Part shown: positions 22,666-44,957 of the stretch, in pieces
Layout of the letters: every line of letters starts with the position of its first letter
How positions within the stretch are numbered: the stretch's first letter is position 1
Assembly: GCA_964588355.1 (NCBI GenBank)
Contig: CAZPPB010000004.1
Span: 2,992 to 66,991 of the forward strand
Length of the DNA stretch: 64,000 nt
Direction of reading: 5' to 3'
Source: an uncultured Spirochaetaceae bacterium
GTDB taxonomy: Bacteria > Spirochaetota > Spirochaetia > SZUA-6 > DRHE01
Made by a program: the position numbers and the translations under genes
Notes under the pieces: model-generated
Told to the model about the DNA's origin: nothing
Databases searched by the model: none
What the model saw: only the letters and a program-made list of their open reading frames with translations

Positions 22666-23523
22666 TTAGCACCGTCCCGATAGATCGTTTCCCGTGCGAC
22701 GCTGCTCCAGTCCGACCGGATACTCCAGGCGGAAGAAGGTGTGCCGATCGATGATCAGGATCAGGATCGCCGCGCAAAAGTACAGCACTGCCCCGATTGA
22801 TTTCGACAGCTGGCTGATGTAGAAGGCCTCGCCGATGAAGTTGATCATGAAGTGAAAGAACACGGCGGAGAGCACACTCCTGTTCGTGTGGAAGTAGATC
22901 CAGTTCATGATCACCGCCTGGGGGATCATGCTGGTGATGTAGAAGAACAGAGGGACGGGCTGGGAGAGAAGAGCCTGCTGATACGAGCTCGGAATGAAGA
23001 ACAGGGGTAGGTGCCACAGCGGCCAGATCACGCCGAAGAGGATGCTGGTCCAGAAGCCGTTCATGCGGCTGCGCAGGCTGTCGATGCCGTAGCCCCGCCA
23101 GCCCATCTCTTCGGGAAGGGGACCGTAGAGCAGGTGCAGGAGCACAAAGCCGAGTGGAGCGGCCAGCAGCCTGCCGTTCGGCTGCAGCTGGTCGAGAGTA
23201 TCCCCGAAGGCCAGTGAGAGGAGCACAGACAGGCCCATGAGCAGGGGAACGAACAGGAGCGTGATCGCCCACCAGAGACCGGGAATCAGGCTGGGATCAA
23301 TAGCTCTGCGCCAGAAGTCCCGGACCAGCTCGCGGTTTCTGGCTGTGTAGATCATGATCAGAGCTGCCGGTACGGCGCTGATTCCGGCTACGGCCATAAA
23401 GATAATGTTGAACTGGAACCATTTTCTGTTGATCCCGGCTACAGCCAGCCAGAGAGGGATCCAGGTGAGCAGGAAATCTATAAGAAAGAATCTGAAGGGT
23501 TTGTAGCGTGGTTTTGTACTCAT
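22666..23523 (-). CDS. CPBP family intramembrane metalloprotease (CAAX protease-like)
   Basis: CPBP motifs PEEMGWRG (EExxxR) and FFHFMINF (FxxxH) in a multi-TM hydrophobic protein. The ATG at 23523 has AAGGAA upstream and overlaps the stop of the upstream small lipoprotein gene (ATGA). Confidence 0.7.
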   Translation of the reverse strand: MSTKPRYKPFRFFLIDFLLTWIPLWLAVAGINRKWFQFNIIFMAVAGISAVPAALIMIYTARNRELVRDFWRRAIDPSLIPGLWWAITLLFVPLLMGLSVLLSLAFGDTLDQLQPNGRLLAAPLGFVLLHLLYGPLPEEMGWRGYGIDSLRSRMNGFWTSILFGVIWPLWHLPLFFIPSSYQQALLSQPVPLFFYITSMIPQAVIMNWIYFHTNRSVLSAVFFHFMINFIGEAFYISQLSKSIGAVLYFCAAILILIIDRHTFFRLEYPVGLEQRRTGNDLSGRC

Positions 23524-23714
23524 TTTTCGGATTCCTTTCCCGGCACCATGCACACCGCTGCTACGTGAAGGGTCTTGGTCGCCCCGGAGTCGTCGTACAC
23601 CAGGGGCGCACCGGAGATATCGTATAGGGACTGGATAATGGTGTCTTTGTTCCCGCAGGACACAAGCAGCGGGAAAAACAGTACGAAAACAAGGGTTCTT
23701 TTCACCGACGGCAT
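23520..23714 (-). CDS. Small putative lipoprotein (64 aa)
   Basis: MPSVKRTLVFVLFFPLLVSCGNKD… is a signal peptide with a lipobox-like LVSC. It is translationally coupled to the CPBP gene. Confidence 0.4.
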   Translation of the reverse strand: MPSVKRTLVFVLFFPLLVSCGNKDTIIQSLYDISGAPLVYDDSGATKTLHVAAVCMVPGKESEK

Positions 23715-23832
23715 CTTAGTGAAACCGGATCGCTGAATCAAGCGCCCGCCGGCAGGTCCGATCATAAATTATCGATGTAAAGCTCAATAATTACGAATTT
23801 ATTTTGTTATATTATAAATATTTCTCGTAATA

Positions 23833-23861
23833 TTGACAGAAACCACAATTATTCTTAAAAT
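23833..23861 (+). promoter_or_regulatory. Putative sigma70-type promoter of the lrp-gcv unit (-35 TTGACA 23833-23838, 17-nt spacer, -10 TAAAAT 23856-23861). Predicts a leaderless or near-leaderless lrp mRNA.
   Basis: A consensus -35 and a good -10 at optimal spacing in an AT-rich divergent intergenic region. The -10 ends only 8 nt before the lrp ATG at 23870. Confidence 0.35.
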
Positions 23862-23869
23862 GATGATCA

Positions 23870-24313
23870 ATGAAGATCGACCAGACCAACATCGGCATCA
23901 TCAGGCATCTGCGGGACGGCCGGAAGTCCTACAAGGAGATCGCCGACGACCTCTCGATCACGGAGAACACGGTGCGCTCCCGGGTTCAGCAGATGACCCG
24001 GGAGGGGGTGCTTTCCATCACGGGCCTGATCGATGCGCAGAAGGTTCCCGGGCACCGCATGGTGCTGGTGGGGATCAAGCTGGACACGATGAACCTGGTC
24101 AAGAAGGGGGAGGAGTTCAGCCGACTCAAAGGGGTCGTGTCGGTGGCCGTGGTCACCGGCCGCTACGACCTGATCCTCACGGTACTTCTGCGGGAGGACT
24201 TCGGATTGCTGGAGTTTTACACCCAGGAGGTGGACAAGATCGAGGAGGTCAGCTCTGCCGAGACCTTCGTCGTATACAAAGGGTACAATCTGGATGTACC
24301 CTATATCTTGTAG
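23870..24313 (+). CDS. Lrp/AsnC family transcriptional regulator
   Basis: MKIDQTNIGIIRHLRDGRKSYKEIADDLSITENTVRSRVQQM… (HTH_AsnC) plus a RAM/ligand-binding domain. 147 aa. Confidence 0.8.
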   Translation: MKIDQTNIGIIRHLRDGRKSYKEIADDLSITENTVRSRVQQMTREGVLSITGLIDAQKVPGHRMVLVGIKLDTMNLVKKGEEFSRLKGVVSVAVVTGRYDLILTVLLREDFGLLEFYTQEVDKIEEVSSAETFVVYKGYNLDVPYIL

Positions 24314-24342
24314 TTCAGGATCCCAAAGCACAGGAGGAATTC

Positions 24343-24735
24343 ATGGAGATACCCAAAGGTCTAAAATACGCCAAGACCCACGAATGGGTGCGGGTTGAGG
24401 GGGATGTGGCCTACATCGGCATCAGCGACTATGCGCAGGAGGAGCTGGGGGATATCGTGTACGTGGAAATACCCTCTGTCGGTGACAGCTACCAAAAGGG
24501 TGAAGAGGCGGCAACCGTCGAATCGGTCAAGGCGGCTTCAGCCATCTATACCCCCGTCGCCGGCACCGTAAAAGAGATCAATGCGGAACTCGAGGACACC
24601 CCCGAGTTGATCAATCAGAAGCCCTATCAGGCCTTCATCTTCGCCGTCCACTTCTCCGATGCCTCCGGGTTGGATGAGCTTTTGGATGCTGAGAGCTACC
24701 AGAAGCACGTGGAGCAGGAGAAGGCCAGTCACTAG
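24343..24735 (+). CDS. gcvH: Glycine cleavage system protein H (lipoyl carrier)
   Basis: MEIPKGLKYAKTHEWVRVEGDVAYIGISDYAQEELGDIVYVEIP… with the lipoyl-lysine context. AGGAGG 5 nt upstream. The ORF-track extension back to 23833 is an artefact. Confidence 0.9.
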   Translation: MEIPKGLKYAKTHEWVRVEGDVAYIGISDYAQEELGDIVYVEIPSVGDSYQKGEEAATVESVKAASAIYTPVAGTVKEINAELEDTPELINQKPYQAFIFAVHFSDASGLDELLDAESYQKHVEQEKASH

Positions 24736-24748
24736 AGGACCAAATTCT

Positions 24749-26095
24749 ATGATCGCTTATCTTCCCCATACCGAAGAGGACATCAAAACGATGCTCGAGG
24801 CGGCCGGCATCACCGACATCGAGCAGCTGTTCGCCGATGTGCCCCGTGACCTGGTTCTGCGCAAACCCCTTGGGATCCCGGAGGGAGTCTCCGAGTTCGA
24901 GGTGTACAGGCGGATGAAAGCCCTGGCGGCAGGAAACCGGGTGGAGCCTGTCAGCTTTCTCGGCTGCGGCAGCTACCAGCACATCATCCCAGCAGCTGTA
25001 GGGCATGCTCTCTCCCGCTCGGAGTTCTACACTTCCTACACGCCGTACCAGGCTGAGATGTCTCAGGGAATCCTTCAGGCCATCTTCGAGTTCCAGACCA
25101 TGATCTGCGAGCTGACCGGACTGGAGGTGTCCAATGCCTCCCTGTACGACGGACACACAGCCGTCAGCGAGGCGGCCGTCCTGGCCCTGAACAGCGTGCG
25201 CCGCTCGGACACCATCCTCTATTCGAGTACCCTTCACCCGTTCACCCGACAGGTGCTCAAGACCCATTTCGCCAACCTGCCGGTCAAACTCGAGGAGGTC
25301 CCCGCGGACAGAGGCACAACCGACCTGGAGGAGCTGGTTGAAAGGCTTCGGCCCGGAGTAGCGGGTGTGGTTCTTCAGAGCCCCAACACCCTCGGCTACA
25401 TCGAAGATCTGAGCGGCCTTGCCGACAAGGTACACGAAAACGGTTCCCTGCTGATCATCTCTGCCAATCCTCTTTCCCTGGGTCTGCTCAAACCGCCGGG
25501 GGAATGGGGTGCAGACATAGCGGTCGGGGATACTCAGCCCCTTGGGCTGCCGTCCTACTTCGGAGGACCCTCGGTGGGCTACATCGCGGCCACCGAAAAG
25601 CTGTTGCGCAAGATGCCCGGACGCATCGCCGGCCAGTCCCTGGACCAGGAGGGCGCTCGCGCCTTTCTGCTCACACTGCAGGCCCGGGAGCAGCACATCA
25701 AACGAGAGCGAGCCACTTCGAATATTTGCTCCAACCAGGCACTGGCCGCGCTGGCCACGACGGTGTATCTGGCCTCCCTGGGCAGACGGGGCATCCGGGA
25801 GGTTGCTGAACAGAATCTGCACAAGGCTCACTACCTCCACGGGCGACTGCTCGAACAGACGCCGGTAGAAGCACTGTACGACCAGCAGTTTTTCAACGAG
25901 TTCCCCGTGGTACTTCCCAGACCGGCCGCCGAGGTATTGCCCCGCATGGAGGAAGCGGGATTCTACGCCGGCGTGGAACTTCATCGCCTCGACCCGACGC
26001 TCCCGGAGGGGGCGCTGCTGATCGCTGTTACCGAACGGCGAACACGGGAGGAGATGGATGCATACGTGGAGGCAATGAAGGGGGCAATCCAATGA
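24749..26095 (+). CDS. gcvPA: Glycine dehydrogenase (decarboxylating) subunit 1
   Basis: [21 protein letters not shown]…[15 protein letters not shown]…[11 protein letters not shown]… is typical of GcvPA. About 448 aa. Confidence 0.9.
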
Positions 26096-27564
26096 GCGGA
26101 AAAGACAATCCTCTGATCTTCGAACTGAGCAAAACCGGGCGCCGCGGGTATCGGTTGCCCGATCTTGATGTCCCCGCCGGGCAGCCGGCTTCCCTGGTGG
26201 ATCCCCGGCTGCTGCGGCAACGGGCGCCGAATCTGCCGGAGGTGAGCGAAGTAGAGGTGATCCGGCACTACACCGCTCTGAGCCGCCGCAACTACGGCGT
26301 GGACCTGGGCTTCTATCCCCTGGGCTCCTGTACCATGAAGTACAACCCCAAGATCAACGAGGAGGTGGCGGCCTTCGAAGGATTTCAGCAGCTTCATCCT
26401 CTCCAGCCTGAAAGCGGCGCTCAGGGAACCATGGCGCTGATGCACGAGCTGCTTCGGCTCTTGAGTGAGGTCACCGGGATGTCCTGGGGCACGCTGCAGC
26501 CCTTTGCCGGAGCCCACGGAGAGTTCACGGGCATGAAGCTGTTCAAGGCCTGTTTCGAAAAGCGGGGTGAGACGGGCCGGACCAAGGTACTGGTTCCGGA
26601 TTCCGCCCACGGAACCAATCCCGCCTCGGCCCACCTGGCGGGATTCGAGGTGGTGGAGATCCACTCCGACAGCAGGGGCCTGGTTTCCGTGGAGAGTTTG
26701 AAGGAGCACCTGGATGAATCCCTGGCCGGCATCATGATGACGAATCCCAACACCCTCGGATTGTTCGAGGAGGATATCCTGGAGATCTCCAGGGCGATCC
26801 ATGACGTTGGGGGACTTCTGTACTACGACGGAGCCAATCTGAACGCAATCGTTGGCAAGGTTCGTCCGGGGGATATGGGCTTCGATGTGGTGCACCTCAA
26901 CCTGCACAAGACCTTCTCCACACCCCACGGAGGGGGAGGTCCGGGTGCGGGACCGGTACTGGTCTGCGAAACGCTTCTGCCTTTCCTGCCCGTGCCGGAT
27001 ATCGTGAAGAAAGACGACGGCTATCATTTTGAGGAGAACAGGCCGGATTCGATCGGCCGCCTGTCCGGATTCTACGGAAACGTGGCGGTGATGGTGAGAG
27101 CCTACGCCTACCTGCTCACCATGGGCCGGGATGGACTGGCCAGGGTAGGTGAGCTGTCCGTGTTGAACGCCAACTACCTGAAGGAGCGCCTCAAGGCGAG
27201 CTATGATCTTCCCTACGACAGGCTCTGCAAGCACGAGTTCGTGCTTTCCGCCCGGGGGCTAAAGGACAGGCTTGGAGTCACGGCTCTGGATGTGGCCAAG
27301 CGGCTGCTGGACTTCGGGATCCATCCGCCCACCGTATACTTTCCCCTGATCGTACAGGAGGCGCTGATGATCGAGCCCACGGAGACCGAGAGCCTCGAGG
27401 TATTGGATCGATTCGTCGAGGCCATGGAAACGATCGTTCGAGAAGCCGGGGAAAGCCCGCAGACCCTCAAGCAGGCCCCCAGCCGCACTCCGGTGCGCCG
27501 GATCGATGAGGTGCTGGCGGCCCGCAGACCGATCGTGCGCTGGCAACCGGGGCAGCAGTCATGA
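26092..27564 (+). CDS. gcvPB: Glycine dehydrogenase (decarboxylating) subunit 2 (PLP-binding)
   Basis: …[21 protein letters not shown]… PLP-lysine block. It has an ATGA overlap with gcvPA and a 4-nt overlap with the following gcvT. Confidence 0.9.
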
Positions 27565-30290
27565 AGCGCACCGGGTTATATGAAAAACATCTGGACCTGG
27601 GAGCTCGCCTGGTCGAGTTCGCCGGCTGGGAGATGCCCGTGCAGTATCCCACGGGCATCGTGGAGGAACACCTCCTGACCCGGAAGAGTGCCGGCTTGTT
27701 CGATATCTCCCACATGGGCCGTTTCCTCATCTCGGGAGGGGGGGCACTGGCTTTTCTTCAGCATGTCCTGACCAACAATGCGGCGGCCCTGGAGCCGGGC
27801 CAAGCGCAGTACACGATGATCCCCAACGCCGAGGGCGGGGCGGTGGATGACGCCTATCTGTACTGCCTGGACACCCCGGCGGAAAAGCGTGCGCAGAAGG
27901 CGCTGAGCGCCCGGGAATATCTCCTGGTCGTTAATGCCGCCAACCGGGACAAGGACTGGGACCATCTACAGTCCATGAAACGCGAGTTCCCCGGTGTGGA
28001 GCTGCGCGACCGCACCCGGGAACTGGCCATGCTCTCGCTGCAGGGGCCGGAATCCCGTAAGATTTTGATCGATCTGTTCGGGGAGGCGGCGCTGCCCGAG
28101 CCGGGGCGCAACAACCTGCTGAGGATTTCCCGCAACGGTCTGGAGCTTACTATCGCCCGGACCGGCTACACCGGAGAGCCGTTGGGCTTCGAGATTTTCG
28201 CACCCGCCGAAGCAGTTGCTGGACTTTGGGACGCCCTGCTGGAAGCCGGGGCGGCGCCGATCGGTCTCGGAGCCCGGGATACGCTCCGTCTGGAGGCCGG
28301 CCTGCCCCTCTACGGGCACGAACTGGGGATCGGTCCGGAAAACCGGGAGATCCCTATCTACTCCTGTCCCCTGGCCCGCTTTGCGGTGAGCCTGAGCGAG
28401 GCGAAGGGCCGGTTTGTCGGCAGGGAAGCCTTGGAGGAGCAGTTTGCGGCCTACAGGAGGATCGTCAAACACAACTACCCCCGGGATGGTGTGCGGAAGG
28501 GCGAACAGCCGCTGCCGCGGATTATCAGGCTGTTCGAGCTCAGGGATAGAGGGATCGCCCGCCAGGGGGCCGAGGTCTTTGTAGAAGATCGCCGGGTCGG
28601 TTGGGTGACCAGCGGAACCATGGCTCCCTACTGGATCTTCGAAGGAGAGGGATTGTGCAGTGTTCCTTCCGATCGCAGTGACCGCAGGGCAATCGGCATG
28701 GCGTTGATCGACAGCGGCATCGAAGAGCAGACCGAGATCCGGATCGATGTCCGGGGCAAACGACTCAGGGCGATCACCGTTGCCTATCTGCTGCGGGCCG
28801 AAGCTCCACCCATGGCCCGGCCGGTTCTCTGGACAGCGGCGGCGGAGATACCGGCGGCTGATACCCGGGCGGCACAGCCCGCTGCCGAGACCCGGGAGGA
28901 GGCCCGCCCCTACCCTCAGCGGGTACGGGAGCTGCTGGAGGGGAGCATAGAGAACACCCGCTGGCGGCAGCAGCGCTGCATCAACCTGATTCCCTCTGAG
29001 ATGACCCAGTCCTCTATGGCTCGATTGCTGTCGGTCATGGATCCCTCCTTCCGTTACGGGGAGCATAGGAAAGTCAAGGCCTTTTACGACGCCGAAGTGT
29101 TTTACTACCAGGGTACCGATTTCATCGATGCGGTGGAACGTGCTGTGGTCGAGGAGCTGCGTCGCTTCCTGGGCTGCCTGAGGGTCGAGACCCGGATAGT
29201 GAGCGGTCAGATGGCCAACATGGCCCTGTTCAGCGCCCTGGTTGACTACCTCAACCGGGACGACCGCAGGAGTGAGCCCCGTCGGATCCGGTCGATCATG
29301 AACAACCACATCATCAAAGGCGGTCATCTCAGCGCCCAGCCCATGGGCGCGTTGCGGGATTTCGTGGCCCGGGATCCAACTCGAGAAGCCCCCGGTGTCG
29401 TCAATTTTCCGGTCTGCCGGGATGACCCGTACAGGATCGATACTGAAGCGCTGCCGGAGCTTCTCGATCAGCACCGGCCGGAGCTGATCGTTCTGGGTAA
29501 GAGCATGATTCTGTATAGGGAACCGGTTCGGGAGATCCGCCGGATCCTGGATCAGCTGTCCTTGGACACGGTACTGATGTACGACATGGCTCACGTCCTC
29601 GGTTTGGCGGGGCCTCACTTCCAGGATCCTTTCGCAGATGGAGCCGACGTCGTCACCGGTTCGACCCACAAGACCTTCTTCGGGACCCAGCGGGGAATCG
29701 TGGCGGCGAATTGGGCGGAGGAAGACCCGGCCTACGAGCTGTGGGAGACGATCCAGCGGCGTACCTTCCCGGGGAGTGTTAGCAACCATCACCTGGGGAC
29801 TTTGCTAGGATTGCTTGTGGCCGCCTACGAGATGAACGCCTTCAAGGGAGAGTATCAGAAGGCGGTCATTGCCAATGCTAAGAGTTTTGCCCGTGCTCTC
29901 AACGATGCGGGACTCGCCGTTGCCGGGGATCCTGATGTGGGCTATACCGAGACGCACCAGGTGGTCGTCGAGCTGGGCTACTGCCGGGGTGTGGAGGCGG
30001 CCCGCCTTTTGGAGGAGAACAACATCATCGTCAACTTCCAGGCCTCTCCCCGGGAGGAGGGATTCACCGCTTCCGGAGCTCTGCGCATGGGGGTGTCCGA
30101 GATGACCCGCTTCGGGATGGGGCCGGGAGATTTCACGGCCCTGGCGGGATTGATCCGGGATGTGGTTCGGGACGGAAAAACCGTACAGGATCAGGTGGTT
30201 CAGCTGCGCAGCGGTTTTCGGGAGCTGCAATACTGTTTCTCCGGCGAAGAGCTGGAACGGCAGGTGGAGGAGTTGCACCGGCTGATCTAG
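27561..30290 (+). CDS. gcvT: Aminomethyltransferase (GcvT, aa 1-~413) fused in frame to a serine hydroxymethyltransferase-like fold-type-I PLP domain (aa ~456-909)
   Basis: N-terminus [29 protein letters not shown]…[11 protein letters not shown]… is GcvT. After a Pro/Ala-rich linker (…[36 protein letters not shown]…), the C-terminus has SHMT blocks by eye. These are LIPSEMTQS (SHMT LIASENFTS), [12 protein letters not shown] (VDMAHVAGLVAA) and [19 protein letters not shown] (VVTTTTHKTLRGPRGG, PLP lysine at aa 704). It is a single 909-aa ORF. Confidence 0.8.
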
Positions 30291-30386: not shown

Positions 30387-31139
30387 ATGGGTGCAAAGAA
30401 AACCTGGCACGAAGAGGATACCTTCTGGAAGGAAACACTGCCGGTGCTGTTCCCGGACAGCCGAATACAGGAGGCACAGAAAGAGGTGGAGCAGATCCTC
30501 ACTCTGACCGAGATTCCGGCTGGGGCAGCCGTGCTGGATCTGTGCTGCGGTGTCGGCCGGCATTCCCTGGAGCTTGCCAGGAGGGGGTTTCGGGTGACCG
30601 GGGTGGATCGGACAAAGCAGTACCTGGACCTGGCGGCTTCCGAGGCTACGGCAGAAGCCCTGACCCTCGAACTGATTCAGCAAGATATGAGAACCTTCTG
30701 CAGGGAGGAGCGATTCGACGCGGTGCTCAACCTGTTCACGTCCTTCGGCTATTTCGAGGATCCCCGGGATGATCAACGAGTTGTAGCCAATATACATGCT
30801 TCTCTGCGAGCCGGCGGAGTGTTTGTGATGCAGCTGATGAGCAAAGAGGTGCTGGCCCGCATCTTCAGGCCCAGGGATTGGTACGAGCAGGAAGGGTTGC
30901 TGGTGCTGGAGGAGAGAAAGGTCAGGCAGAGCTGGTCCTGGATCGAGAGCCGCTGGACCCTGATCCGCGAAGGCCGACGGGTCGACCTGGACCTGTCCCA
31001 CCGTCTGTATTCGGCCTCGGAGCTTGCATCCCTGCTTCGGGAGCGCGGATTCGAGGAGGTTGTCGCCTACGGAGATTTCGACGGTTCCCCCTACGACGAA
31101 AAGGCCGACCGCCTGGTTGTCCTGGCCCGCAAACGGTAG
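30387..31139 (+). CDS. Class I SAM-dependent methyltransferase
   Basis: SAM motif I VLDLCCGVGRHSLELA and motif post-I. AAGGAG 5 nt upstream of the ATG at 30387 (an alternative ATG is at 30384). Confidence 0.7.
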   Translation: MGAKKTWHEEDTFWKETLPVLFPDSRIQEAQKEVEQILTLTEIPAGAAVLDLCCGVGRHSLELARRGFRVTGVDRTKQYLDLAASEATAEALTLELIQQDMRTFCREERFDAVLNLFTSFGYFEDPRDDQRVVANIHASLRAGGVFVMQLMSKEVLARIFRPRDWYEQEGLLVLEERKVRQSWSWIESRWTLIREGRRVDLDLSHRLYSASELASLLRERGFEEVVAYGDFDGSPYDEKADRLVVLARKR

Positions 31140-31715: not shown

Positions 31716-33173
31716 TCAGCTTACATAATCTATCAGCTCGTCCACGACCCTTTTGTCGAGCTTTCCCGCCTTCACGTCCTCCTGGAGAATCTCGATCGCC
31801 TTCACCTTGGGCATCGCCGGGCGGTAGGGTCTCTCGGTGTTGAGGGCGTCGTAGATGTCCACCACGCACATGATCCGGGCCGCCAGGGAGATCTCATCTC
31901 CTTTGAGTCCGTCCGGATACGAGGAGCCGTCCAGCTTCTCGTGATGATGGCGGATGACATCCAGGGCCAGTCCGAGGTTCGATTTCATGGGCAGACAGAT
32001 CTGATATCCGATCTCCGGATGGGCTTTCATTTTTTTCCACTCGTCGGGCTCGAGTTTTCCGGGTTTGTTGAGGATCTCCTCGGCAATGCCGATCTTCCCG
32101 ACGTCGTGCAGTATTCCCCCCAGGCGAAGGGCGAATATCTCTTTATCATTGAGGCCCAACCTTTTCCCGAGGGCCTCGGCCATACTCGCCACCCGCTGGG
32201 TGTGTCCCAGCGTGTACTGGTCCTTGGCCTCGACGGCACCGGCCAGGGAGAACAGGGCGTTCTCCACACTGACCAGGTTCCTGTTCAGCTCTCTGACTCG
32301 AATCAGGGCACGGGTCCTGGCGAGGAGCTCCTCCCGGTTGGCCGGTTTGGAGAGAAACTCGTCCGCCCCGGCTTCGATGCCCCGTACTTTCGCCTGCAGA
32401 TCATCCAAAGCGGTGATCAGAATAACGGGAATGAAACGGGTATTTTCAATGGTCTTGACGCGTTTGCACACTTCGTAACCGTCCAGACCGGGCATCATGA
32501 TGTCGAGCAGTATCAGGTCCACCTCGCTCTTGCCAAGCAGAGTCAAGGCCTCCTCGCCGCTGTGGGCTGTGAGCACATCGTATCGCTGGGGAACCAGGTA
32601 TCCTTCCAGGAGCTTGATGTTTCGGCGGTCGTCATCCACGATGAGCACCCGCGGCCTATCGTCCCCCTGCTCCACGATCGGGCGGGCGAAGTAAAAAATC
32701 CGCCTGTTCGGCGTCCGCTGGGCCTGCCGTAGCGCCGACATGGTTTTATTGAGCAATCCCTCTCGGTCGGGAGCGTCGACCGGGAAGGAAGCCATGCCGA
32801 TGGAGAAGGTCAGCTCGTCGGAGAAGCGTCGTTCGACGGCTCTGCAAATGCGCTCCCCCGCAACATGGGCGACCTCCGCCGGCGTTTTCAGGAGCAGAAC
32901 AGCGTACAGGTCCTCATCGTAACGGCAGGCCAGATCCACATCCCGGATATTCCCTTCTATCAGGGTTCCCAGCTCCTGCAGGGTCTGTACATCCTCGGGT
33001 GGGTTTTCCGCCCGCAGCAGAGCTACGGTGAAGGGATCCCCGCTTCGCTGCGAGCGCAGGAACTCCCTGTCCAGCTCCAGAGCGAACAGCTCACGGGAGT
33101 ACAGGCCCGTTTCCGGATCGCCGTAACCGCCTCCGATTTTCCTCTTCTCGGTTCTTTCGAGATCCTCCGGCAT
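31716..33173 (-). CDS. HD-GYP c-di-GMP phosphodiesterase with N-terminal degenerate GGDEF-like domain and central REC domain
   Basis: HD-GYP blocks (HDVGKIG, HHEKLDGSSYPDGL). REC block (RVLIVDDD…LILLDIMMPGLDGYEV). The N-terminal ~160 aa resembles GGDEF, but the signature position reads RYDEDLYAV rather than RxGG(D/E)EF. Confidence 0.75.
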   Translation of the reverse strand: MPEDLERTEKRKIGGGYGDPETGLYSRELFALELDREFLRSQRSGDPFTVALLRAENPPEDVQTLQELGTLIEGNIRDVDLACRYDEDLYAVLLLKTPAEVAHVAGERICRAVERRFSDELTFSIGMASFPVDAPDREGLLNKTMSALRQAQRTPNRRIFYFARPIVEQGDDRPRVLIVDDDRRNIKLLEGYLVPQRYDVLTAHSGEEALTLLGKSEVDLILLDIMMPGLDGYEVCKRVKTIENTRFIPVILITALDDLQAKVRGIEAGADEFLSKPANREELLARTRALIRVRELNRNLVSVENALFSLAGAVEAKDQYTLGHTQRVASMAEALGKRLGLNDKEIFALRLGGILHDVGKIGIAEEILNKPGKLEPDEWKKMKAHPEIGYQICLPMKSNLGLALDVIRHHHEKLDGSSYPDGLKGDEISLAARIMCVVDIYDALNTERPYRPAMPKVKAIEILQEDVKAGKLDKRVVDELIDYVS

Positions 33174-34994
<1,821 letters not shown>

Positions 34995-37781: not shown

Positions 37782-39512
37782 CTATTCCCTGTCGGGGACG
37801 AGACCGGTTTGAGCGCTGTACAGCTCCGCGTACAGTCCAGGCTGTCCGACCAGCCCGTCATGGGTTCCCCGTTGTACGATACCGGTTTCCGCCAGAACGA
37901 TGATCTCATCGGCGTTGCGGATCGTCGAAAGGCGGTGGGCGATGATCAGGGTTGTACGTCCTACGATGAGCTTATCCAGTGCCTCCCGAATGATCATCTC
38001 CGTCTGCGTATCCAGGGAGCTGGTGGCTTCGTCCAGGACGAGGATACGCGGGTTTTTCAGGAAAGCCCGGGCTATGGAGATGCGCTGCTTCTGCCCCCCT
38101 GACAGTTTGATCCCTTTTTCGCCGATATGGGTATCGTAGCCGGCGGGAAGCTTGAGGATAAAGGAGTGGGCTCCGGCCTGTCCGGCGGCCTGCTGGATCT
38201 GTTCGACAGTTGCTCCGGGTTTGCCGTAGGCGATGTTGTCCCGTATCGTACCGGTGAACAGAAATACATCCTGCTGCACGATGCCGATCGCCGCCCTCAA
38301 GCTTTGCAGGCTCACCGTGCACACATCCATTCCGTCGATCAGCACCTGTCCGCCTTCCGGTTCGTAGAAACGGGGAATCAGGTGGCAGAAGGTGGTCTTG
38401 CCGGCCCCTGAAGGGCCCACCAGTGCAACGACGCTTCCCGGCTGGATCGTGAGATTCAAATTTTTCAGGACGTGACGATGCCTGTCGTAGCTGAAGGTGA
38501 CATCCTGGAAATCGATGCGCCCGGATCGGACCTGCAGCTCTACGGCCCCCGGAGCATCACGGATATCCGGTTCTTCGTCCATGATTTCGAAGAAGCGCCG
38601 CAGGCCTGCGTTCATGCGCTGAACCAACTCCACGGTCCGAGACAGACGTTCGATCGGTTCCAGATAGATCCCGATGTAGAACAGAAAGGCCACCAGAGTA
38701 CCCAGGCTCATGCTTCCGGCGATCACGAACAATCCTCCCGCTACGATGATCACCAGGCGGGATAGGTCTCTCATCAGAAACACCCCGCCGTAGAAGCTGC
38801 CGAGGATCCAGAGCACCGAGCGCCAGGATCGGTAGTAGGTCCTGTTCAAGCTGTCGAAGTTTTCCCGCTCCTGTTTTTCCCGGGTGAAAGATTGCATGAC
38901 CCTGATGCCGGAGATGATGTTTTCCACCTTGGCGTTGATCTCGGCGATGGCATCGTTGATGCCCTCGAAGCCCCGGCGGATGCGCCCGCCCAGTAAACCC
39001 GAATAAGCGGCCATAATGGGAATTGGAATCGAGCAGATCAGGGCCAGCTTCCAGTTCAATGCGAACAGCACGGAGTAGGACCCCAGGATCATTGTGACGG
39101 CCAGGAAGATATCCTCCGGCGCATGATTTACCGCGTCGGTCACTCTGCCGATGTCGTTGATCATCCGGGACATCAGTTCCCCGGTTTTTCGGTTGTCGAA
39201 GAAACGGAACGACAGGGTCTGCAGATGGTAGAACAGATCCCGTCGCATATCCTTCTCCATTTTGACAGCCATCAGGTGTCCGGCGTAGAGGGTGTAGAAG
39301 TTGCAGCCGTACTTGGCGAGCATCATCAGGGTGATCAGCAGACCGAGACGCAAGATACCCCTCAGATCCGCCTCCGGGATGAGGGAATCGACCACGATTT
39401 TCAGAAGATACGGCACGGCGATGGTGAGAGCGGAGACCAGGGCCACGGCGAGCAGATCGCTGGCCAGCAGGAACCGGTAGGGTTTGTAGTATGCCAGTAC
39501 CCGCCGAATCAT
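37782..39512 (-). CDS. ABC exporter, fused permease/ATP-binding protein (MsbA/type I exporter family)
   Basis: Six-TM N-terminal domain plus an NBD with Walker A GPSGAGKTT, signature LSGGQKQR and Walker B ILVLDEATS. Confidence 0.8.
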   Translation of the reverse strand: MIRRVLAYYKPYRFLLASDLLAVALVSALTIAVPYLLKIVVDSLIPEADLRGILRLGLLITLMMLAKYGCNFYTLYAGHLMAVKMEKDMRRDLFYHLQTLSFRFFDNRKTGELMSRMINDIGRVTDAVNHAPEDIFLAVTMILGSYSVLFALNWKLALICSIPIPIMAAYSGLLGGRIRRGFEGINDAIAEINAKVENIISGIRVMQSFTREKQERENFDSLNRTYYRSWRSVLWILGSFYGGVFLMRDLSRLVIIVAGGLFVIAGSMSLGTLVAFLFYIGIYLEPIERLSRTVELVQRMNAGLRRFFEIMDEEPDIRDAPGAVELQVRSGRIDFQDVTFSYDRHRHVLKNLNLTIQPGSVVALVGPSGAGKTTFCHLIPRFYEPEGGQVLIDGMDVCTVSLQSLRAAIGIVQQDVFLFTGTIRDNIAYGKPGATVEQIQQAAGQAGAHSFILKLPAGYDTHIGEKGIKLSGGQKQRISIARAFLKNPRILVLDEATSSLDTQTEMIIREALDKLIVGRTTLIIAHRLSTIRNADEIIVLAETGIVQRGTHDGLVGQPGLYAELYSAQTGLVPDRE

Positions 39513-40708
39513 GGGGTTGATGTATCGCCCCCGGTTTTCGATCGATGATGCTTGCGCTTCTTGTTGGCGTACATCGATTTGTCTGCAGCTATCAGCAGCG
39601 TGTTGAGATCCACCGGATTCTGAGGATCAAAGGTGGCCACTCCCATGCTGATGGAAAACGGATATGGCCGCTGCACTCGGCGATTATAGGATTCCAGGTT
39701 TTTCCTCAACCTGGCGAAAAGTACTTCCGCATTGATTTCAGGTTTTTCGGTGATGAGAATCACAAACTCGTCCCCGCCGATTCTGGATATGATATCGGAT
39801 TCTCTGAAACTCTGCCGCAGCAGTTGACCGGCGTCAACTATCACCCGATCACCTTCATGGTGTCCGAAGCCGTCGTTGATTTTTTTTAAACCGTCCAGGT
39901 CTGCCGAAACGAGTAGCATTCCCCGTTTTGTCCTGGTTGCGATCTTGATCTGCTGTTCCGCCAGGATGAAGAAACCTCTTCTGTTGTACAGACCGGTGAG
40001 TTCGTCTGATAGACTCAGCGTGCGTAATTCCTCCAGAACACGCTGCCGATCTTGAAGGTATTGATTCGCTCTGGAAACGCTGATAATCACTGCAATAAGG
40101 AGAATTGTCGCCATGCCGAACAGTACGGCGGAAGACAGGGTGATCAGGGATCTCACCTTTTGTTTTTCAGGAGTGATATTGTAATAGATCTCGAAAACAC
40201 CGGTCAGCCTCCCCTCGCGGACGATCGGAATATAGGCTTCCACAACGTCCGCGCTCATGTAACGGTTCTCGAGAGATCTGCCGCCCCTCTCCACCTCTTT
40301 CACAATTATTTCGGGTTCAGCCGTTAACCGGCGAAAATAGGGATCCTGATTCACCTCACCGATTTCTCCGGGTTCGCTGGAATAGAGGATCCGTCCCGAG
40401 GGAGAATAAATCACAAGGCGAACGAAATGGGCGTCCCTTTCGATCTGCCGGATCTGATCAATGGTCTGCCCGCTCAAAGTGCCCTTTTCCAGCGAGCGAT
40501 CCTCTGCGAATATGACCATGCCGAGGTATTTGGCGATTCCCGCTGCCTCATTCAGTGTGAGCTCTTCGAGCAGCCGGGTAATGCTGGGATACTGATGGAA
40601 GATCGTGAACAGAGGAAACAGGATGATCGTAACTATCGACACGATCACGATCGCCGTAAGAAACGAAGGTCTTAAATAGCCAATTCTGTCCGTGGCGTTG
40701 AGTTTCAT
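39509..40708 (-). CDS. Membrane-anchored diguanylate cyclase (two TM helices flanking a periplasmic sensor, plus GGDEF)
   Basis: An intact GGDEF active site RIGGDEFVIL, with the RxxD I-site context upstream. It overlaps the ABC exporter gene by 4 nt. Confidence 0.75.
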   Translation of the reverse strand: MKLNATDRIGYLRPSFLTAIVIVSIVTIILFPLFTIFHQYPSITRLLEELTLNEAAGIAKYLGMVIFAEDRSLEKGTLSGQTIDQIRQIERDAHFVRLVIYSPSGRILYSSEPGEIGEVNQDPYFRRLTAEPEIIVKEVERGGRSLENRYMSADVVEAYIPIVREGRLTGVFEIYYNITPEKQKVRSLITLSSAVLFGMATILLIAVIISVSRANQYLQDRQRVLEELRTLSLSDELTGLYNRRGFFILAEQQIKIATRTKRGMLLVSADLDGLKKINDGFGHHEGDRVIVDAGQLLRQSFRESDIISRIGGDEFVILITEKPEINAEVLFARLRKNLESYNRRVQRPYPFSISMGVATFDPQNPVDLNTLLIAADKSMYANKKRKHHRSKTGGDTSTP

Positions 40709-40720
40709 CTTGTTCTGTGA

Positions 40721-41122
40721 TCAATCAGGTTGGGTGAGCTCGGTCAGCACCTTGACGGAGGATTTGGGGTGGAGGAAGGCGACCCGGCTTCCGTGGGCTC
40801 CGCGGCGGGGTGTCTCGTCGATCATCCGCACCTGTTTTTGTTTCAGCTCGGCGATCTGCTTCTCGATATCATCCACCTGAAAGGAGATGTGATGCAACCC
40901 CTCTCCCCGGTTTTCGATAAAGGCGCAAATCGTGCTTTCCGGATCCGTCGGTTCTATCAGTTCGATCTGCACCTCCCCGACACGAAACACGGCCAGGCGC
41001 ACCTTCTGGTCCTGCACCACTTCCGTACCTCCGTACTCGAGATTCAACACGTCCCTGTAAAAGGCGATGTGTTCTTCCAGGGACTGTACGGCGATGGCTA
41101 TGTGGTTGATCTTGTTAATCAC
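40721..41122 (-). CDS. mce: Methylmalonyl-CoA epimerase (VOC/glyoxalase family)
   Basis: MINKINHIAIAV…GEGLHHISFQVDDIEK… is typical of the 133-aa epimerase. It is downstream of meaB, which is downstream of the mcm genes. Confidence 0.72.
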   Translation of the reverse strand: MINKINHIAIAVQSLEEHIAFYRDVLNLEYGGTEVVQDQKVRLAVFRVGEVQIELIEPTDPESTICAFIENRGEGLHHISFQVDDIEKQIAELKQKQVRMIDETPRRGAHGSRVAFLHPKSSVKVLTELTQPD

Positions 41123-42113
41123 CCGTTTTCTCCTTCAAAAAGTTGCGAATTTGTTCGTTGATCAGCGCGTACGGGCGGGCATCCCGGCGGTAGAGACGCT
41201 CGACCCACATGGGGAGTTGTTTGGAAACCTCTATGTGCACGTCCATCAGTTCGTGAACCTTGCGGTTCAGTATTCCCAGCAGTTCTCTCTCCAGGCGCAA
41301 GCGCCGTTTCTCCGCCAGCTTTCCGCAGCTCTCTGAGTTCCCCGCGTAGTCCTCGATCGCCTCCTGCAGCTGCTCGATTCCATCTTCGTGAACGGCGCTT
41401 GTCATCAGAATCGGATTGTCGACGCCCTGCGGGCCGATCCCTGTCGGGCCACCCCCCTCCCCGTCGTTTCCTGTGACGGAGCTTTTAAAGCTCAAGACGT
41501 ACTGCACCTCCGCAAGCAGCTTGTCCGCCCCGGACAGATCCTTTTTATTGATGACGAAGATGTCTGCGATCTCCATTATCCCGGCCTTCATTGCCTGGAT
41601 CTCATCGCCAGCCCCGGGCATCAGGACCAGGAGCACGATATCGGAGAGCTCCACGATCTTTATCTCAGCCTGTCCCACCCCGATCGTCTCTATGAAGATC
41701 GACTGGTAGCCGGCGGCGTCGAGCACCTTGATCACATCTCCGGTTGCCGCCGCTATTCCGCCCAGAAATCCCCGGGAGGCCATTGAGCGGATGAACACTC
41801 CCCCATCGGTGGCGTGGGTCTGCATACGTAGACGATCGCCCAGAATCGCCCCTCCGGAAAAAGGGGAGCTGGGGTCTACGGCGATCACCGCCACCCTGCG
41901 ACCCCGCTGTCGTTCCAGGGTGATCAGTCGGTCTACCAGGCTGCTCTTGCCGGCGCCGGGGCTGCCCGTTACCCCCAGGATCCGGGAGCGGCCGGTATAC
42001 GGGTAAAGGGCATCCACCAGGCCTTCGGCCTCCGGCTCCAGGTCTTCGATCATGGAGATGGTCCGGGCGATTGCCCGGAGGTTTCCGCGGCGGACCTCTG
42101 TAACAAGATCCAT
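41115..42113 (-). CDS. meaB: Methylmalonyl-CoA mutase-associated GTPase MeaB/ArgK
   Basis: GSPGAGKSSL P-loop, and the MeaB family sequence. Confidence 0.8.
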   Translation of the reverse strand: MDLVTEVRRGNLRAIARTISMIEDLEPEAEGLVDALYPYTGRSRILGVTGSPGAGKSSLVDRLITLERQRGRRVAVIAVDPSSPFSGGAILGDRLRMQTHATDGGVFIRSMASRGFLGGIAAATGDVIKVLDAAGYQSIFIETIGVGQAEIKIVELSDIVLLVLMPGAGDEIQAMKAGIMEIADIFVINKKDLSGADKLLAEVQYVLSFKSSVTGNDGEGGGPTGIGPQGVDNPILMTSAVHEDGIEQLQEAIEDYAGNSESCGKLAEKRRLRLERELLGILNRKVHELMDVHIEVSKQLPMWVERLYRRDARPYALINEQIRNFLKEKTGD

Positions 42114-42118
42114 AGCTT

Positions 42119-42526
42119 TCAGGAACCCTCCCGGGCGGACTCCAGGAACTCGACGATCTGTTTGGTGGTGGTGCCCGGTCCGAAGATCGCAGCCACCCCC
42201 TTGTCTTTGAGAGAGGGAATATCTTCCTCCGGGATGATACCGCCGCCGAATACGATGATATCTTCGGCGCCATTCGCTGCCAGCAGATCCACTACTCGAG
42301 GGAACAGCTCGTTGTGGGCGCCGGACAGAAGGCTCAAGCCCACGAAATCCACGTCCTCCTGGATCGCCGTCTGCACGATTGCCTCGGGAGATTGCCGGAT
42401 CCCTGTGTAGATTACCTCGTATCCCTCGTCGCGCAGCGCCCGGGCTATAAACTTGGCGCCCCGGTCATGACCGTCCAATCCGGGTTTGGCAATGAGAATC
42501 CTTGTTTTGGTTGCCGTCATCCTCAT
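42119..42526 (-). CDS. Methylmalonyl-CoA mutase, small cobalamin-binding subunit
   Basis: The B12-binding domain [30 protein letters not shown] contains the DxHxxG motif. ~135 aa. Start at ATG 42526 or 42520. Confidence 0.75.
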
Positions 42527-42530
42527 CTCC

Positions 42531-44198
42531 TCACAGCACAATCGTTTCTCTGTGTTCGCCGAACTCCTCCCGCAGCAGCTGACAGATCTCTCCCAAGGTG
42601 GCGTACTCCTTGACAGCTTCGAGAATCAGGGGCAGCAGATTGACGCTCTTGCGTTTCGCTCCCTCCTGCAGCTTTTCCAGGGCGTCCTGCACACGGGAAG
42701 CGTCGCGCTTCGCTTTGACTCGGGAGAGCTTTTCGATCTGGAGCTGGCGAACCGCCGGATCGACCCGCAGAAGTTCTTGAGGTTTTTTCTCCTCCATCTG
42801 GAATTTGTTTATCCCGACCACGACCCGCTCGCCTCTTTCGATGTCCTTCTGAGTACGGAAGGCGGATTCCTGGATCTGCTTCTGGACGTAGCCCTTCAAG
42901 ATGGATGGAATCATGCCGCCCAGGGCTTCGATTCTGTCGATATACTGCCAGACCTCCAGCTCGATACGATCGGTAAGCGCCTCCAGGCAGTAGGACCCGG
43001 CCAGGGGATCCACGGTGGAGGTTACCCCGGACTCGTAGGCCAGAATCTGCTGGGTGCGCAAGGAAAGGCGTACCGATTCCTCCGCAGGCAGGGCCAGGGC
43101 TTCTTCCCGGCTGTTCGTGTGCAGACTCTGGGTTCCTCCCAGAACGGCGGCCAGGGCCTGGATTGCCACCCGGACGATGTTGTTGTCCGGCTGTTGGGCG
43201 GTTAGGGTCGAACCCCCGGTCTGGGTGTGGAAGCGCAGCATTGTGGATTTCGGCTTGGTGGCCTGAAATCGTTCCTTCATGATCCGCGCCCATATCCGGC
43301 GCGCTGCCCGGAACTTGGCCACCTCTTCGAGCAGATCGTTGTGGGCATTGAAGAAGAATGAAAGCCGGCCCGCGAAATCATCCACGTCCAGTCCTGCCTT
43401 GACGGCAGCACGGACGTACTCGATCCCATTGGCCAGGGTAAAAGCCACTTCCTGAGAGGCGTCGCTGCCGGCTTCCCGGATGTGGTAACCGGAGATGCTG
43501 ATAGTATTCCACAGGGGAACTTCCCCGCTGCAGTAGGCGAATATGTCGGTAATCAGACGCATCGAAGGTTCGGGGGGAAAGATGTAGGTTCCCCGAGCCA
43601 CGTATTCTTTCAGGATGTCATTTTGGATCGTGCCCCGCAGCTTTTCCTTCCCCACTCCCTGTTTCTCGGCCACGGCGATGTACATAGCCAGGAGGATGGC
43701 AGCCGGCGCATTGATGGTCATGGAGGTTGAGATCTTGTCCAGCGGGATGCCGTCGAAGAGGATCTCCAGGTCTTTCAAGGTGTCGATAGCCACCCCGACC
43801 TTCCCGACCTCTCCTTCGGCCCGGGGATCGTCGGAGTCGTAGCCGATCTGGGTAGGCAGATCGAAGGCTACCGAGAGCCCGGTCTGTCCCTGTTCCAGCA
43901 GGTAACGATACCGCCGGTTCGACTCCTCGGCGGTGGCGAAGCCGGCGTACTGGCGCATGGTCCAAAGCCGACCCCGGTACATGGTGGGGTGTACCCCACG
44001 GGTATACGGATACTGCCCGGGAAACCCCAGTTTTTCCAGGTACTCAGCCTCGGAGAAGCCTTCGGGAAGGTAAAGCCGATCCACCGGCTTGTCCGATCCG
44101 GTAACGAACTCACTCCTTCGTTCCGGATGACGGCTGATCAGCGCTTCGACGGCCTCCCGCTCCCATTCTTCTTTTTGTTTTTCGATCTCCTCGGGCAT
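42531..44198 (-). CDS. Methylmalonyl-CoA mutase, large catalytic (TIM-barrel) subunit of split enzyme
   Basis: MCM N-terminal domain sequence (…[25 protein letters not shown]…). ATG at 44198 with GGGGAGG upstream. The ORF-track start 44213 lies in the RBS. Confidence 0.8.
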
Positions 44199-44234
44199 GC
44201 CCTGCCTCCCCATTTTGGCCGGCGAGATAGATGT

Positions 44235-44912
44235 TCAGTACTCCAGGCTCTCTCCGATTGGCAGCACGCGGGCTTTTTGGCCTTTGGCCTGAACCTGTTT
44301 TACGAACTCCCCGGGTTCTACATCGATGACCTCGAAGGTCTTGAAGTGCATCGGCAGGTACAATCCGGCCTGGAGGAATTCCGCCGCCATAACCGCATCC
44401 TCGATTCCCATCGTGAAGTTGTCTCCGATAGGCAGAGCAGCCAGGTCGATCTTGTTCATCTGGCCGATCAATTTCATATCGTAGAACAGTCCGGTGTCAC
44501 CCGCGTGATAGAAGGTCTTTCCATCCATGGTGACGAGAAAACCGCAGGGATTTCCCGTGCAGGTACCGTCCGGTGCGAGCGAGCCGTGATGCGCAATCGT
44601 CAGCTTGACCCTGCCGAAGGGGAACTCATGAGCGCCGCCGATGTGCATCGGGTGTATCTGGGCTCCCTTTCCGGAGCAGTAGATGGCCAGCTCATTCGGT
44701 GCCACGATGGTGGCGTTGTTGGCCTTGGCGATCTCGATTCCGTCTCCCAGATGGTCACCGTGGCCGTGGGTCAGCAGGACATAGTCGACTTCGATTTCTT
44801 CCGGGCCGGCTGTGGCCAAGGGATTGCCGGATAGAAATGGATCAATTACTATCCGCCCTTTCGAACCTTCCACGGTGAACGCTGAGTGTCCCAAATAGGT
44901 TATCCGGGGCAT
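44235..44912 (-). CDS. Metal-dependent hydrolase of the metallo-beta-lactamase fold (UPF0173-like)
   Basis: LLTHGHGDHLGD motif, 225 aa. Confidence 0.7.
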   Translation of the reverse strand: MPRITYLGHSAFTVEGSKGRIVIDPFLSGNPLATAGPEEIEVDYVLLTHGHGDHLGDGIEIAKANNATIVAPNELAIYCSGKGAQIHPMHIGGAHEFPFGRVKLTIAHHGSLAPDGTCTGNPCGFLVTMDGKTFYHAGDTGLFYDMKLIGQMNKIDLAALPIGDNFTMGIEDAVMAAEFLQAGLYLPMHFKTFEVIDVEPGEFVKQVQAKGQKARVLPIGESLEY

Positions 44913-44957
44913 AGCTTACTCCTTTCGATCTATTATATCGCAATCTTCGGGGCTGGG

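Follow-up and report, generated by a model that had tools for sequence, protein, structure and literature searches.

Glycine, serine and one-carbon metabolism centre on two enzymes, the glycine cleavage system (GCS) and serine hydroxymethyltransferase (SHMT), whose coupling underlies both plant photorespiration and the reductive glycine pathway, the latter being engineered for formate and CO2 assimilation. The reactions of the GCS T-protein (GcvT; EC 2.1.2.10) and of SHMT (EC 2.1.2.1) are linked via exactly one shared cofactor pair, tetrahydrofolate (THF) and methylene-THF. Consecutive folate steps reside on one polypeptide in protozoan dihydrofolate reductase-thymidylate synthase (DHFR-TS) and in formiminotransferase-cyclodeaminase (FTCD), which provide a precedent for the passing of an intermediate between two folate sites. 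The archaeal SHMT of Methanocaldococcus jannaschii uses tetrahydromethanopterin (PMC3697235), and in a defined in vitro system SHMT, T-protein and H-protein together make aminomethyl-lipoyl-H for [FeFe]-hydrogenase maturation (PMC11736057).

Here we describe a gene in which a T-protein and an SHMT-fold domain are part of the same chain. It lies in a 64,000-nucleotide stretch of DNA from an uncultured Spirochaetaceae bacterium (assembly GCA_964588355.1, contig CAZPPB010000004.1, positions 2,992 to 66,991), hereafter the window, where the gcvT::shmt fusion gene occupies positions 27561..30290 of the + strand. We show that its two halves are a genuine T-protein and an archaeal-type SHMT-fold domain, that the catalytic residues of both are intact, that the gene belongs to a glycine-cleavage operon and that the same fusion is widely spread among phyla. 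From this we infer both enzymatic activities, the cycling of folate between them and a physiological direction, in what is on balance probably a bifunctional T-protein/SHMT that passes THF and methylene-THF back and forth between its halves.

Results and Discussion

Architecture and integrity of the fusion protein

The fusion gene starts with ATG and encodes 909 residues followed by a stop codon, with no internal stops in its translation. Residues 1-412 form a complete GcvT, aa 413-446 a disordered linker rich in Ala and Pro, and aa ~447-909 a full-length SHMT-fold domain of the pyridoxal phosphate (PLP)-dependent type. Pfam places GCV_T at aa 6-255 (2e-76), GCV_T_C at aa 324-356 and SHMT (PF00464) at aa 463-864 (6e-34; 117.7 bits against a gathering score of 27), the last covering profile positions 12-398 of 399. 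Together with the presence of the PLP-lysine block, these matches bear out the first-pass annotation of this DNA, which had read a GcvT, a linker and an SHMT-like domain with a PLP lysine from the letters and their translations. The flexible linker (28797..28898, + strand) is rich in Ala, Pro, Arg and Glu, with 13 Ala and 7 Pro among the 43 residues of aa 413-455; it is poorly conserved in sequence, and across 175 homologues its length varies such that 39-84 residues separate the conserved anchors aa 412 and 465. In the AlphaFold2 model, which is a monomer and a predicted rather than a solved structure, the linker has a predicted local distance difference test score (pLDDT) below 50, while the protein as a whole reaches a pLDDT of 82.6 and a predicted template modelling score (pTM) of 0.79. 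A Foldseek search with this model returned no chain of the Protein Data Bank (PDB) spanning both halves, the best query-normalised TM-score being ~0.41.

The joining of adjacent gcvT and shmt-like genes through a frameshift or misassembly is an explanation to which we give next to no weight, no observation having spoken for it. A second, independent JGI metagenome contig encodes an identical protein; the linker stays in frame while varying in length across the 175 sequences; and the open reading frame (ORF) is uninterrupted in the more than 120 homologues listed and in 107 species genomes. At least 120 full-length homologues were listed, at 59-92% identity, and all 120 carry the same GCV_T-plus-SHMT layout, so that a split of the ORF by sequencing error, which the first-pass annotation had considered, is at odds with its intactness in more than 100 genomes. 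In three loci from metagenome-assembled genomes (MAGs; L072, L074 and L077) the fusion gene is broken into two reading frames, and these are probably assembly errors or pseudogenes. Two long antisense ORFs also overlie the region, one inside the fusion gene (27966-29792, - strand, 608 aa) and one inside gcvPA (24635-26092, - strand, 485 aa); both are taken to be shadow ORFs of G+C-rich coding sequence.

The T-protein half

The N-terminal domain (aa 1-412; 27561..28796, + strand) scores above the cutoffs of both NCBIfam GcvT models (NF001567, 321.1 against 300; TIGR00528, 257.2 against 235.85). Its best solved sequence matches are the T-proteins of Thermotoga maritima (1WOO, 5e-55) and Bacillus subtilis (1YX2, about 5e-55), and in the AlphaFold2 model, where the pLDDT of this half is mostly above 85, it shows the three-domain T-protein fold with target TM-scores of 0.86-0.88 to 1WOO, 1YX2 and 3A8I. 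The DD motif (D96/D97, with D97 aligning to T. maritima D96), the RTGYTGE motif and the GLGARD motif (R239) are all present, and D96, D97, R200, G202, Y203, G205, F210 and E211 (GFE), G235-R239 and R243 are the same in all 61 aligned family members.

The SHMT half

For the C-terminal domain (aa 447-909; 28899..30287, + strand) the closest solved relative is M. jannaschii SHMT (4BHD/4UQV), matched over its full length by phmmer at 1e-42 and by Foldseek with a TM-score of 0.84 to 4BHD, at the upper end of the 0.76-0.84 obtained with SHMT structures. The GlyA proteins of bacteria are much weaker matches; that of Escherichia coli (1DFO) is matched at ~1e-22 by phmmer, and tblastn between the two gave no hit at 1e-5. 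SHMT, and not another fold-type-I family, is thus the best match by profile, sequence and fold, an outcome that the earlier annotation had left open. In an unbootstrapped neighbour-joining tree, the fused domains group with the stand-alone proteins P0128, P0133, P0151 and P0178 in a single clade, which branches among the M. jannaschii-like SHMTs, well away from E. coli GlyA. The differences from E. coli that the SHMT half has in common with the M. jannaschii enzyme are T226S, R235Q and G262S/G263N.

To follow individual residues, E. coli GlyA numbering was mapped onto an alignment of 175 fusion proteins, with a reference sequence that agrees with 25 residue numbers from the literature. The equivalents of S35, Y55, E57, Y64, Y65, S97, G98, H126, S175, D200, H203, H228, K229 and R363 are each found in 175 of 175 sequences. 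In the window protein these comprise the PLP-binding set, namely K704 (Lys229; codon 29670-29672), D675 (Asp200), H589 (His126), H678 (His203), S648 (Ser175), H703 (His228) and S548-G549 (Ser97-Gly98); the substrate carboxylate ligand R842 (Arg363) and S479 (Ser35); and the folate-step residues E501 (Glu57), Y499 (Tyr55), Y515 (Tyr64) and Y516 (Tyr65). Nowhere in this set, then, is the PLP lysine lost. Two doubts voiced in the first-pass annotation find no support in these data. The folate NRYYGG block, described there as not conserved, is present as Y499-x-E501 ... Y515-Y516-Q-G with 7 extra residues, its Tyr and Glu positions being invariant; and the suggestion that the domain may be non-catalytic is hard to square with the invariance of its catalytic residues, the divergence from GlyA being mostly a matter of archaeal-type ancestry, as the phmmer values for the M. 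jannaschii and E. coli enzymes illustrate.

Strong purifying selection acts on this half: its identity to the window protein exceeds that of the GcvT half in 174 of 174 comparisons (median 68% versus 60%), which argues for a constrained, working SHMT active site. In the monomer model, confidence is low for aa 496-513 and 584-594, loops for which the partner subunit is required. As to the one-carbon carrier, the folate-type T domain and the predominance of bacterial hosts argue for THF, which the SHMT half would thus use.

A broader metabolic setting for the clade is provided by one of its stand-alone members, P0128 (L082 1056-12154; a single low-coverage contig), which has 485 residues and is 53% identical. 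Its gene is translationally coupled to, and directly 3' of, those of an NAD-type formate dehydrogenase (NuoF-like plus FdhA), and is followed by an SDR/epimerase-family gene, a Kbl-like glycine C-acetyltransferase, a cysteine-synthase-like (CysK-like) gene and gcvPA. This cluster places the fused SHMT clade in glycine and one-carbon metabolism.

The glycine-cleavage operon

The window's operon reads, from 5' to 3', Lrp/AsnC regulator, gcvH, gcvPA, gcvPB, fusion and methyltransferase. The regulator gene (23870..24313, + strand), the first of the cluster, encodes a 147-residue Lrp/AsnC-family transcriptional regulator with Pfam HTH_AsnC-type and AsnC_trans_reg matches, and is found in the same position, at 89-93% identity, in the Spirochaetaceae loci L002, L003, L004 and L078. 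Just 5' of it, in AT-rich sequence, lies a putative sigma-70-like promoter, TTGACA-17-TAAAAT (23833..23861, + strand), a consensus match at 11 of 12 positions. The lipoyl-carrier H-protein of 130 residues is encoded by gcvH (24343..24735, + strand; NCBIfam PRK01202, 162 against a cutoff of 117; TIGR00527, 151 against 116), whose start codon is preceded by an AGGAGG ribosome-binding site. The two P-protein genes follow: gcvPA (24749..26095, + strand; start read from the sequence) for the 448-residue glycine dehydrogenase (decarboxylating) subunit 1 (PRK00451, 579 against 364), and gcvPB (26092..27564, + strand) for the 490-residue subunit 2 (PRK04366, 753 against 441). Both the gcvPA/gcvPB and the gcvPB/fusion junctions are 4-nt overlaps, the latter ATGA, which points to translational coupling of each pair. 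With the fusion coupled to gcvPB and sharing an operon with gcvH and gcvPA, its link to glycine cleavage is stronger than the first-pass annotation could tell, and the simplest reading is that the fusion is the T component of the operon.

The operon may end with a gene directly downstream of the fusion, for a 250-residue class-I S-adenosylmethionine (SAM)-dependent methyltransferase with Pfam Methyltransf_25, _11 and _23 matches (30387..31139, + strand, as called by JGI, within an ORF open from 30300). It is kept 3' of the fusion in the Spirochaetaceae-type loci L001, L004, L072 and L078. The protein resembles glycine/sarcosine N-methyltransferase weakly but over its full length, with 67 bits where the cutoff is 350, and may carry out a further glycine-related step. 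Glycine riboswitches are a common control element in other bacteria; neither one nor any other Rfam family was found at gathering threshold in the whole window, or in a sensitive scan of 23400-24800.

Distribution and genomic context of the fusion

A scan of one genome per GTDB species identified relatives of the fusion in at least 107 genomes, from which 80 loci were retrieved with flanks of up to 10 kb on each side, all 80 sharing the fusion layout. The carriers are Spirochaetaceae MAGs, window-like and 75-85% identical; many Desulfobacterota, including the cultured Desulfoluna limicola ASN36 as well as Desulfobacula, Desulfosarcina and an Olavius symbiont; about two dozen Clostridia, mostly Oscillospiraceae of gut metagenomes plus one Anaerovoracaceae; Planctomycetota; one Thermoleophilia MAG; and one Gemmatimonadota-labelled bin. 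Complete genomes that encode the fusion include those of D. limicola ASN36 (NZ_AP024488.1), Spirochaetaceae bin59 (CP070696.1), an Anaerovoracaceae (OY782829.1) and a Desulfobacteraceae (OZ245369.1). MAG taxon labels may hold binning errors: in the "Gemmatimonadota" locus, L072, the fusion protein shares 78% identity with that of the window, and the gene order matches the Spirochaetaceae loci.

When 1.84 billion cluster representatives were searched, the family was found to extend to fused proteins with as little as 36% identity in the SHMT half. Among the deep-branching fusions, P0137 and P0211 (L083/L084; L087) are encoded on contigs with archaeal-type markers, TYW3 and PTH2 in one and diphthamide synthase in the other, and the fusion probably occurs in Archaea too. 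These neighbour genes, taken with the archaeal-type SHMT half, raise the possibility of an archaeal origin. The contexts of P0137, P0143, P0145, P0177 and P0211, all deep-branching, held housekeeping neighbours only. In P0094 (1368 aa, 11 member sequences) the arrangement goes one step further, with GcvPB, GcvT and SHMT fused in a single polypeptide; a read-through of this kind could arise by a single small change in the window, since the gcvPB stop and the fusion start overlap there.

The fusion is encoded with H- and P-protein genes in the window and in 28 of the 80 related loci. In the seven Spirochaetaceae-type loci the order (Lrp-)gcvH-gcvPA-gcvPB-fusion(-methyltransferase) is kept, and in 20 Clostridia loci it is fusion-gcvH-gcvPA-gcvPB, which puts the fusion where gcvT usually lies; these clusters also contain LplA and Lpd genes. 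The Anaerovoracaceae locus reads gcvH-gcvPA-gcvPB-Lpd-fusion. Neither the 64-kb window nor the flanking sequence of the 80 loci yielded a second glyA or gcvT in tblastn searches with E. coli GlyA and with both domains, except for a plain gcvT at L052 and at L056. The recurrent neighbours in Desulfobacterota are without metabolic link, namely a DnaJ-like protein and DUF3786 and, by eye, NUDIX, MFS, OsmC, PilZ, PEPCK, PHP, a GntR-type regulator, PutA and a transposase; neighbour clusters that proved to be antisense shadow ORFs were discarded. The DUF3786 gene divergently adjoins the fusion in 16 Desulfobacula-type loci (e.g., L026 5147-5758, - strand).

Proposed function and alternative explanations

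In the mechanism that we propose, the P-protein (GcvPA/GcvPB) would decarboxylate glycine and load the aminomethyl group onto lipoyl-GcvH, from which the N-terminal GcvT domain would move the aminomethyl carbon to THF, releasing NH3 and forming 5,10-methylene-THF. The C-terminal archaeal-type SHMT would then combine this methylene-THF with a second glycine to give serine, regenerating THF for the T domain. The SHMT domain would probably dimerize as other SHMTs do, and the 34-residue flexible tether would keep the two folate sites together at 1:1 stoichiometry, so that a small local folate pool could cycle between them. The net and reversible reaction would be 2 Gly + NAD+ + H2O <-> Ser + CO2 + NH4+ + NADH. 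Physical channelling of methylene-THF would be part of this proposal, as would a direction from two glycines to serine.

Several observations weigh against this proposal. The curated NCBIfam SHMT model NF000586 gives the C-terminal half 235.4 bits, under its cutoff of 335, and we therefore file this half as SHMT-fold and archaeal-type rather than as canonical GlyA; the stand-alone clade member P0128 likewise stays under the cutoff, at 239.8. At the pterin-contacting position Asn347 all 175 sequences have Gln (Gln827 in the window protein), a clade-specific exchange found in nearly all fused representatives and in the four stand-alone clade members, P0128 included, whereas most other archaeal-type SHMTs keep Asn. 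The loop between Glu57 and Tyr64 is enlarged, with 13 residues in the window protein and 10-19 across the fused clade instead of the usual 6, and together with N347Q this suggests that cofactor handling may differ from that of canonical SHMT; position 37, Asn in E. coli, is Met or Gln in the fused clade. One fusion, P0132, has a SHMT half without the equivalents of the PLP lysine K229 (THK -> HHT), Glu57, His126 and His203, and its GcvT half is intact. It was found in two samples (L089 3132-5801; L090 760-3429), adjoining the lipopolysaccharide genes LpxK and Glyco_transf_9, and by its sequence looks like a pseudo-enzyme version of the fusion; since the domain is kept after these losses, loss of catalysis need not entail loss of the SHMT fold, at least in one lineage. 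As for genomic context, in about 50 loci of Desulfobacterota, Planctomycetota and Thermoleophilia the stretch of up to 10 kb around the fusion holds no GCS gene and metabolically uninformative neighbours only. In the Oscillospiraceae MAG loci L052 (10001-13920) and L056 (10001-13871) a plain gcvT, ~50% identical to aa 1-423, lies directly 5' of the fusion to give two tandem T domains, which hints that the fusion is not simply a T-protein replacement. Finally, the pterin ring is buried in both folds, so that true channelling would need the folate head group to dissociate.

These points leave room for other functions. One is that the C-terminal domain is not a working SHMT and instead catalyses another PLP reaction (a folate-independent aldolase or transaldolase), serves another one-carbon acceptor, or acts mainly as a dimerization scaffold for the T domain. 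The missed SHMT cutoff, the invariant Gln at 347 with Met/Gln at position 37 and the enlarged 57-64 loop, and the retention of the domain by P0132 in two samples would all fit such a role, as would the rank of the threonine transaldolase 7K34 as third-best solved sequence match. That match, however, covers domain aa 171-427 only, at 3e-25, as against the full-length 1e-42 of M. jannaschii SHMT, and the fluorothreonine transaldolase model TIGR04506 gives 140 bits, far under its cutoff of 650. Glu57 and Tyr65, which established SHMT enzymology requires for the folate-dependent reaction, are moreover invariant along with all PLP and carboxylate ligands, in a domain conserved above the T domain to which it is attached, and we regard this explanation as improbable. 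Another alternative is a parallel rather than serial use of the two domains, both running in one direction with respect to the free folate pool. Both would produce methylene-THF, as would fit serine catabolism, with serine giving glycine and methylene-THF and this glycine then giving CO2, NH3 and methylene-THF to feed the methyl branch or formate production; or both would consume it in a reductive glycine pathway, where CO2, NH3 and two methylene-THF yield serine; the fusion would then provide co-expression and glycine hand-over, not folate hand-over. Both reactions are reversible (established biochemistry), and P0128, directly following the NuoF-like and FdhA genes and near gcvPA, lends mild support. 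The hosts are also largely anaerobes, and Wood-Ljungdahl and reductive glycine pathways have been discussed for Desulfobacterota and Clostridia (PMC12827605). Such an arrangement nonetheless exchanges no intermediate that gains from proximity, as glycine goes to or from the separate P-protein, and a covalent link kept across several phyla becomes harder to explain; nor does a folD, fhs or formate dehydrogenase gene recur beside the fusion in the 80 loci. It may still apply, if with a rather low probability.

A further possibility is that the fusion loads H-protein under reducing conditions, with SHMT moving the serine carbon to THF and the T domain, run in reverse with NH4+, making aminomethyl-lipoyl-H, which could supply the dithiomethylamine ligand of [FeFe]-hydrogenase or glycine synthesis. 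Cell lysate is indeed replaced in defined [FeFe]-hydrogenase maturation by SHMT and T-protein together with H-protein, serine and NH4+ (PMC11736057), most carriers come from anaerobic lineages, and the Desulfobacterota fusion gene stands apart from P-protein genes. Set against this, no hydE, hydF, hydG or hydA cluster recurs beside the fusion in the 80 loci, and both the window and the Clostridia have the gene among those of the P-protein, which makes aminomethyl-lipoyl-H directly from glycine. Hydrogenase-style loading is, besides, our main explanation in reverse, a physiological sub-case rather than a different enzyme, and as the principal role we hold it to be very unlikely, less probable even than the loss of SHMT function considered above. 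The serial T-protein/SHMT remains our preferred explanation, and a more specific variant of it can be envisaged. Here the folate, probably polyglutamylated, would stay bound and swing between the T and SHMT sites as a prosthetic group, making the protein a self-contained glycine-to-serine synthase, in which N347Q and the enlarged Glu57-Tyr64 loop could be hand-over adaptations and a (T-SHMT)2 dimer could form the core of a GCS-SHMT metabolon. We consider this variant speculative and on present evidence doubtful; if true, it would represent the first natural covalent coupling of glycine cleavage and SHMT, and would hand engineers of the reductive glycine pathway and of photorespiratory bypasses a ready-made module.

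Other genes in the window

The window carries further genes away from the operon. Signalling genes lie 3' of it on the - strand (31716-34994 and 39509-40708) and encode a response regulator with a partial GGDEF match and an HD-GYP-type HD domain, a 7TM-PAS histidine kinase and a separate GGDEF protein. A methylmalonyl-CoA mutase (MCM) cluster (41115-45857, - strand), unrelated to the fusion, comprises the MCM catalytic subunit, the B12-binding subunit and the MeaB GTPase, followed by a metallo-beta-lactamase-fold protein and a phosphate acyltransferase.

Significance

A full-text literature search found no description of a natural GcvT-SHMT fusion, and the database names seen for such proteins are "GcvT" or "aminomethyltransferase" only. 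Metabolic reconstructions based on these names overlook an SHMT, and in mouse-gut Oscillospiraceae, sulfate reducers and marine archaea the interconversion of serine and glycine may be wrongly scored as missing or as dependent on glyA alone. Each half belongs to a well-known family, and fusions of consecutive folate enzymes are already known, as are those of GcvT-like folate modules with other catalytic domains; what is new is a widespread, uncharacterised and under-annotated fusion with a distinct SHMT subclade, not a new category. The natural fusion also offers an experimental handle on the old question of whether methylene-THF can pass from T-protein to SHMT without equilibrating with the bulk pool.

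Comparison with known systems

By profile score, fold and motifs the first 412 residues of the fusion are a complete T-protein like those of known GCS (1WOO, 1YX2 and the E. coli protein 3A8I), and they are likewise encoded with gcvH, gcvPA and gcvPB, but the protein bears ~500 extra C-terminal residues, linker and PLP domain, that are present in none of the solved T-proteins. The SHMT half shares with M. jannaschii SHMT the STHKTFFG block, the Gln in place of E. coli Arg235 and the FPGxVSNHHL motif, yet it differs from that enzyme in being joined to a folate-type T-protein, in its Gln at 347, in a 13- rather than 6-residue Glu57-Tyr64 loop, in two further insertions and in its placement in a clade of its own. 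E. coli GlyA (1DFO) has the same fold and catalytic residues and is distant in sequence.

At the level of the overall pathway, the closest parallel is plant mitochondrial glycine decarboxylase with SHMT in photorespiration, which performs the same net chemistry and folate cycling as proposed for the fusion. There the enzymes are separate proteins, whereas here the connection is covalent and the hosts are mostly anaerobic prokaryotes. DHFR-TS and FTCD resemble the fusion in their organization, with folds and reactions unrelated to it. The in vitro hydrogenase maturation mix uses the same pair of activities via methylene-THF, but it is an artificial combination of separate E. coli proteins. Dimethylglycine oxidase (1PJ5), the sarcosine oxidase alpha subunit and trimethylamine N-oxide (TMAO) demethylase (9Q59) combine, as the fusion does, a GcvT-fold THF module with a second catalytic domain, whereby folate captures a one-carbon unit. 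In those enzymes the partner domain produces the one-carbon unit, whereas in the fusion the module is a genuine T-protein and its SHMT partner would consume or supply methylene-THF.

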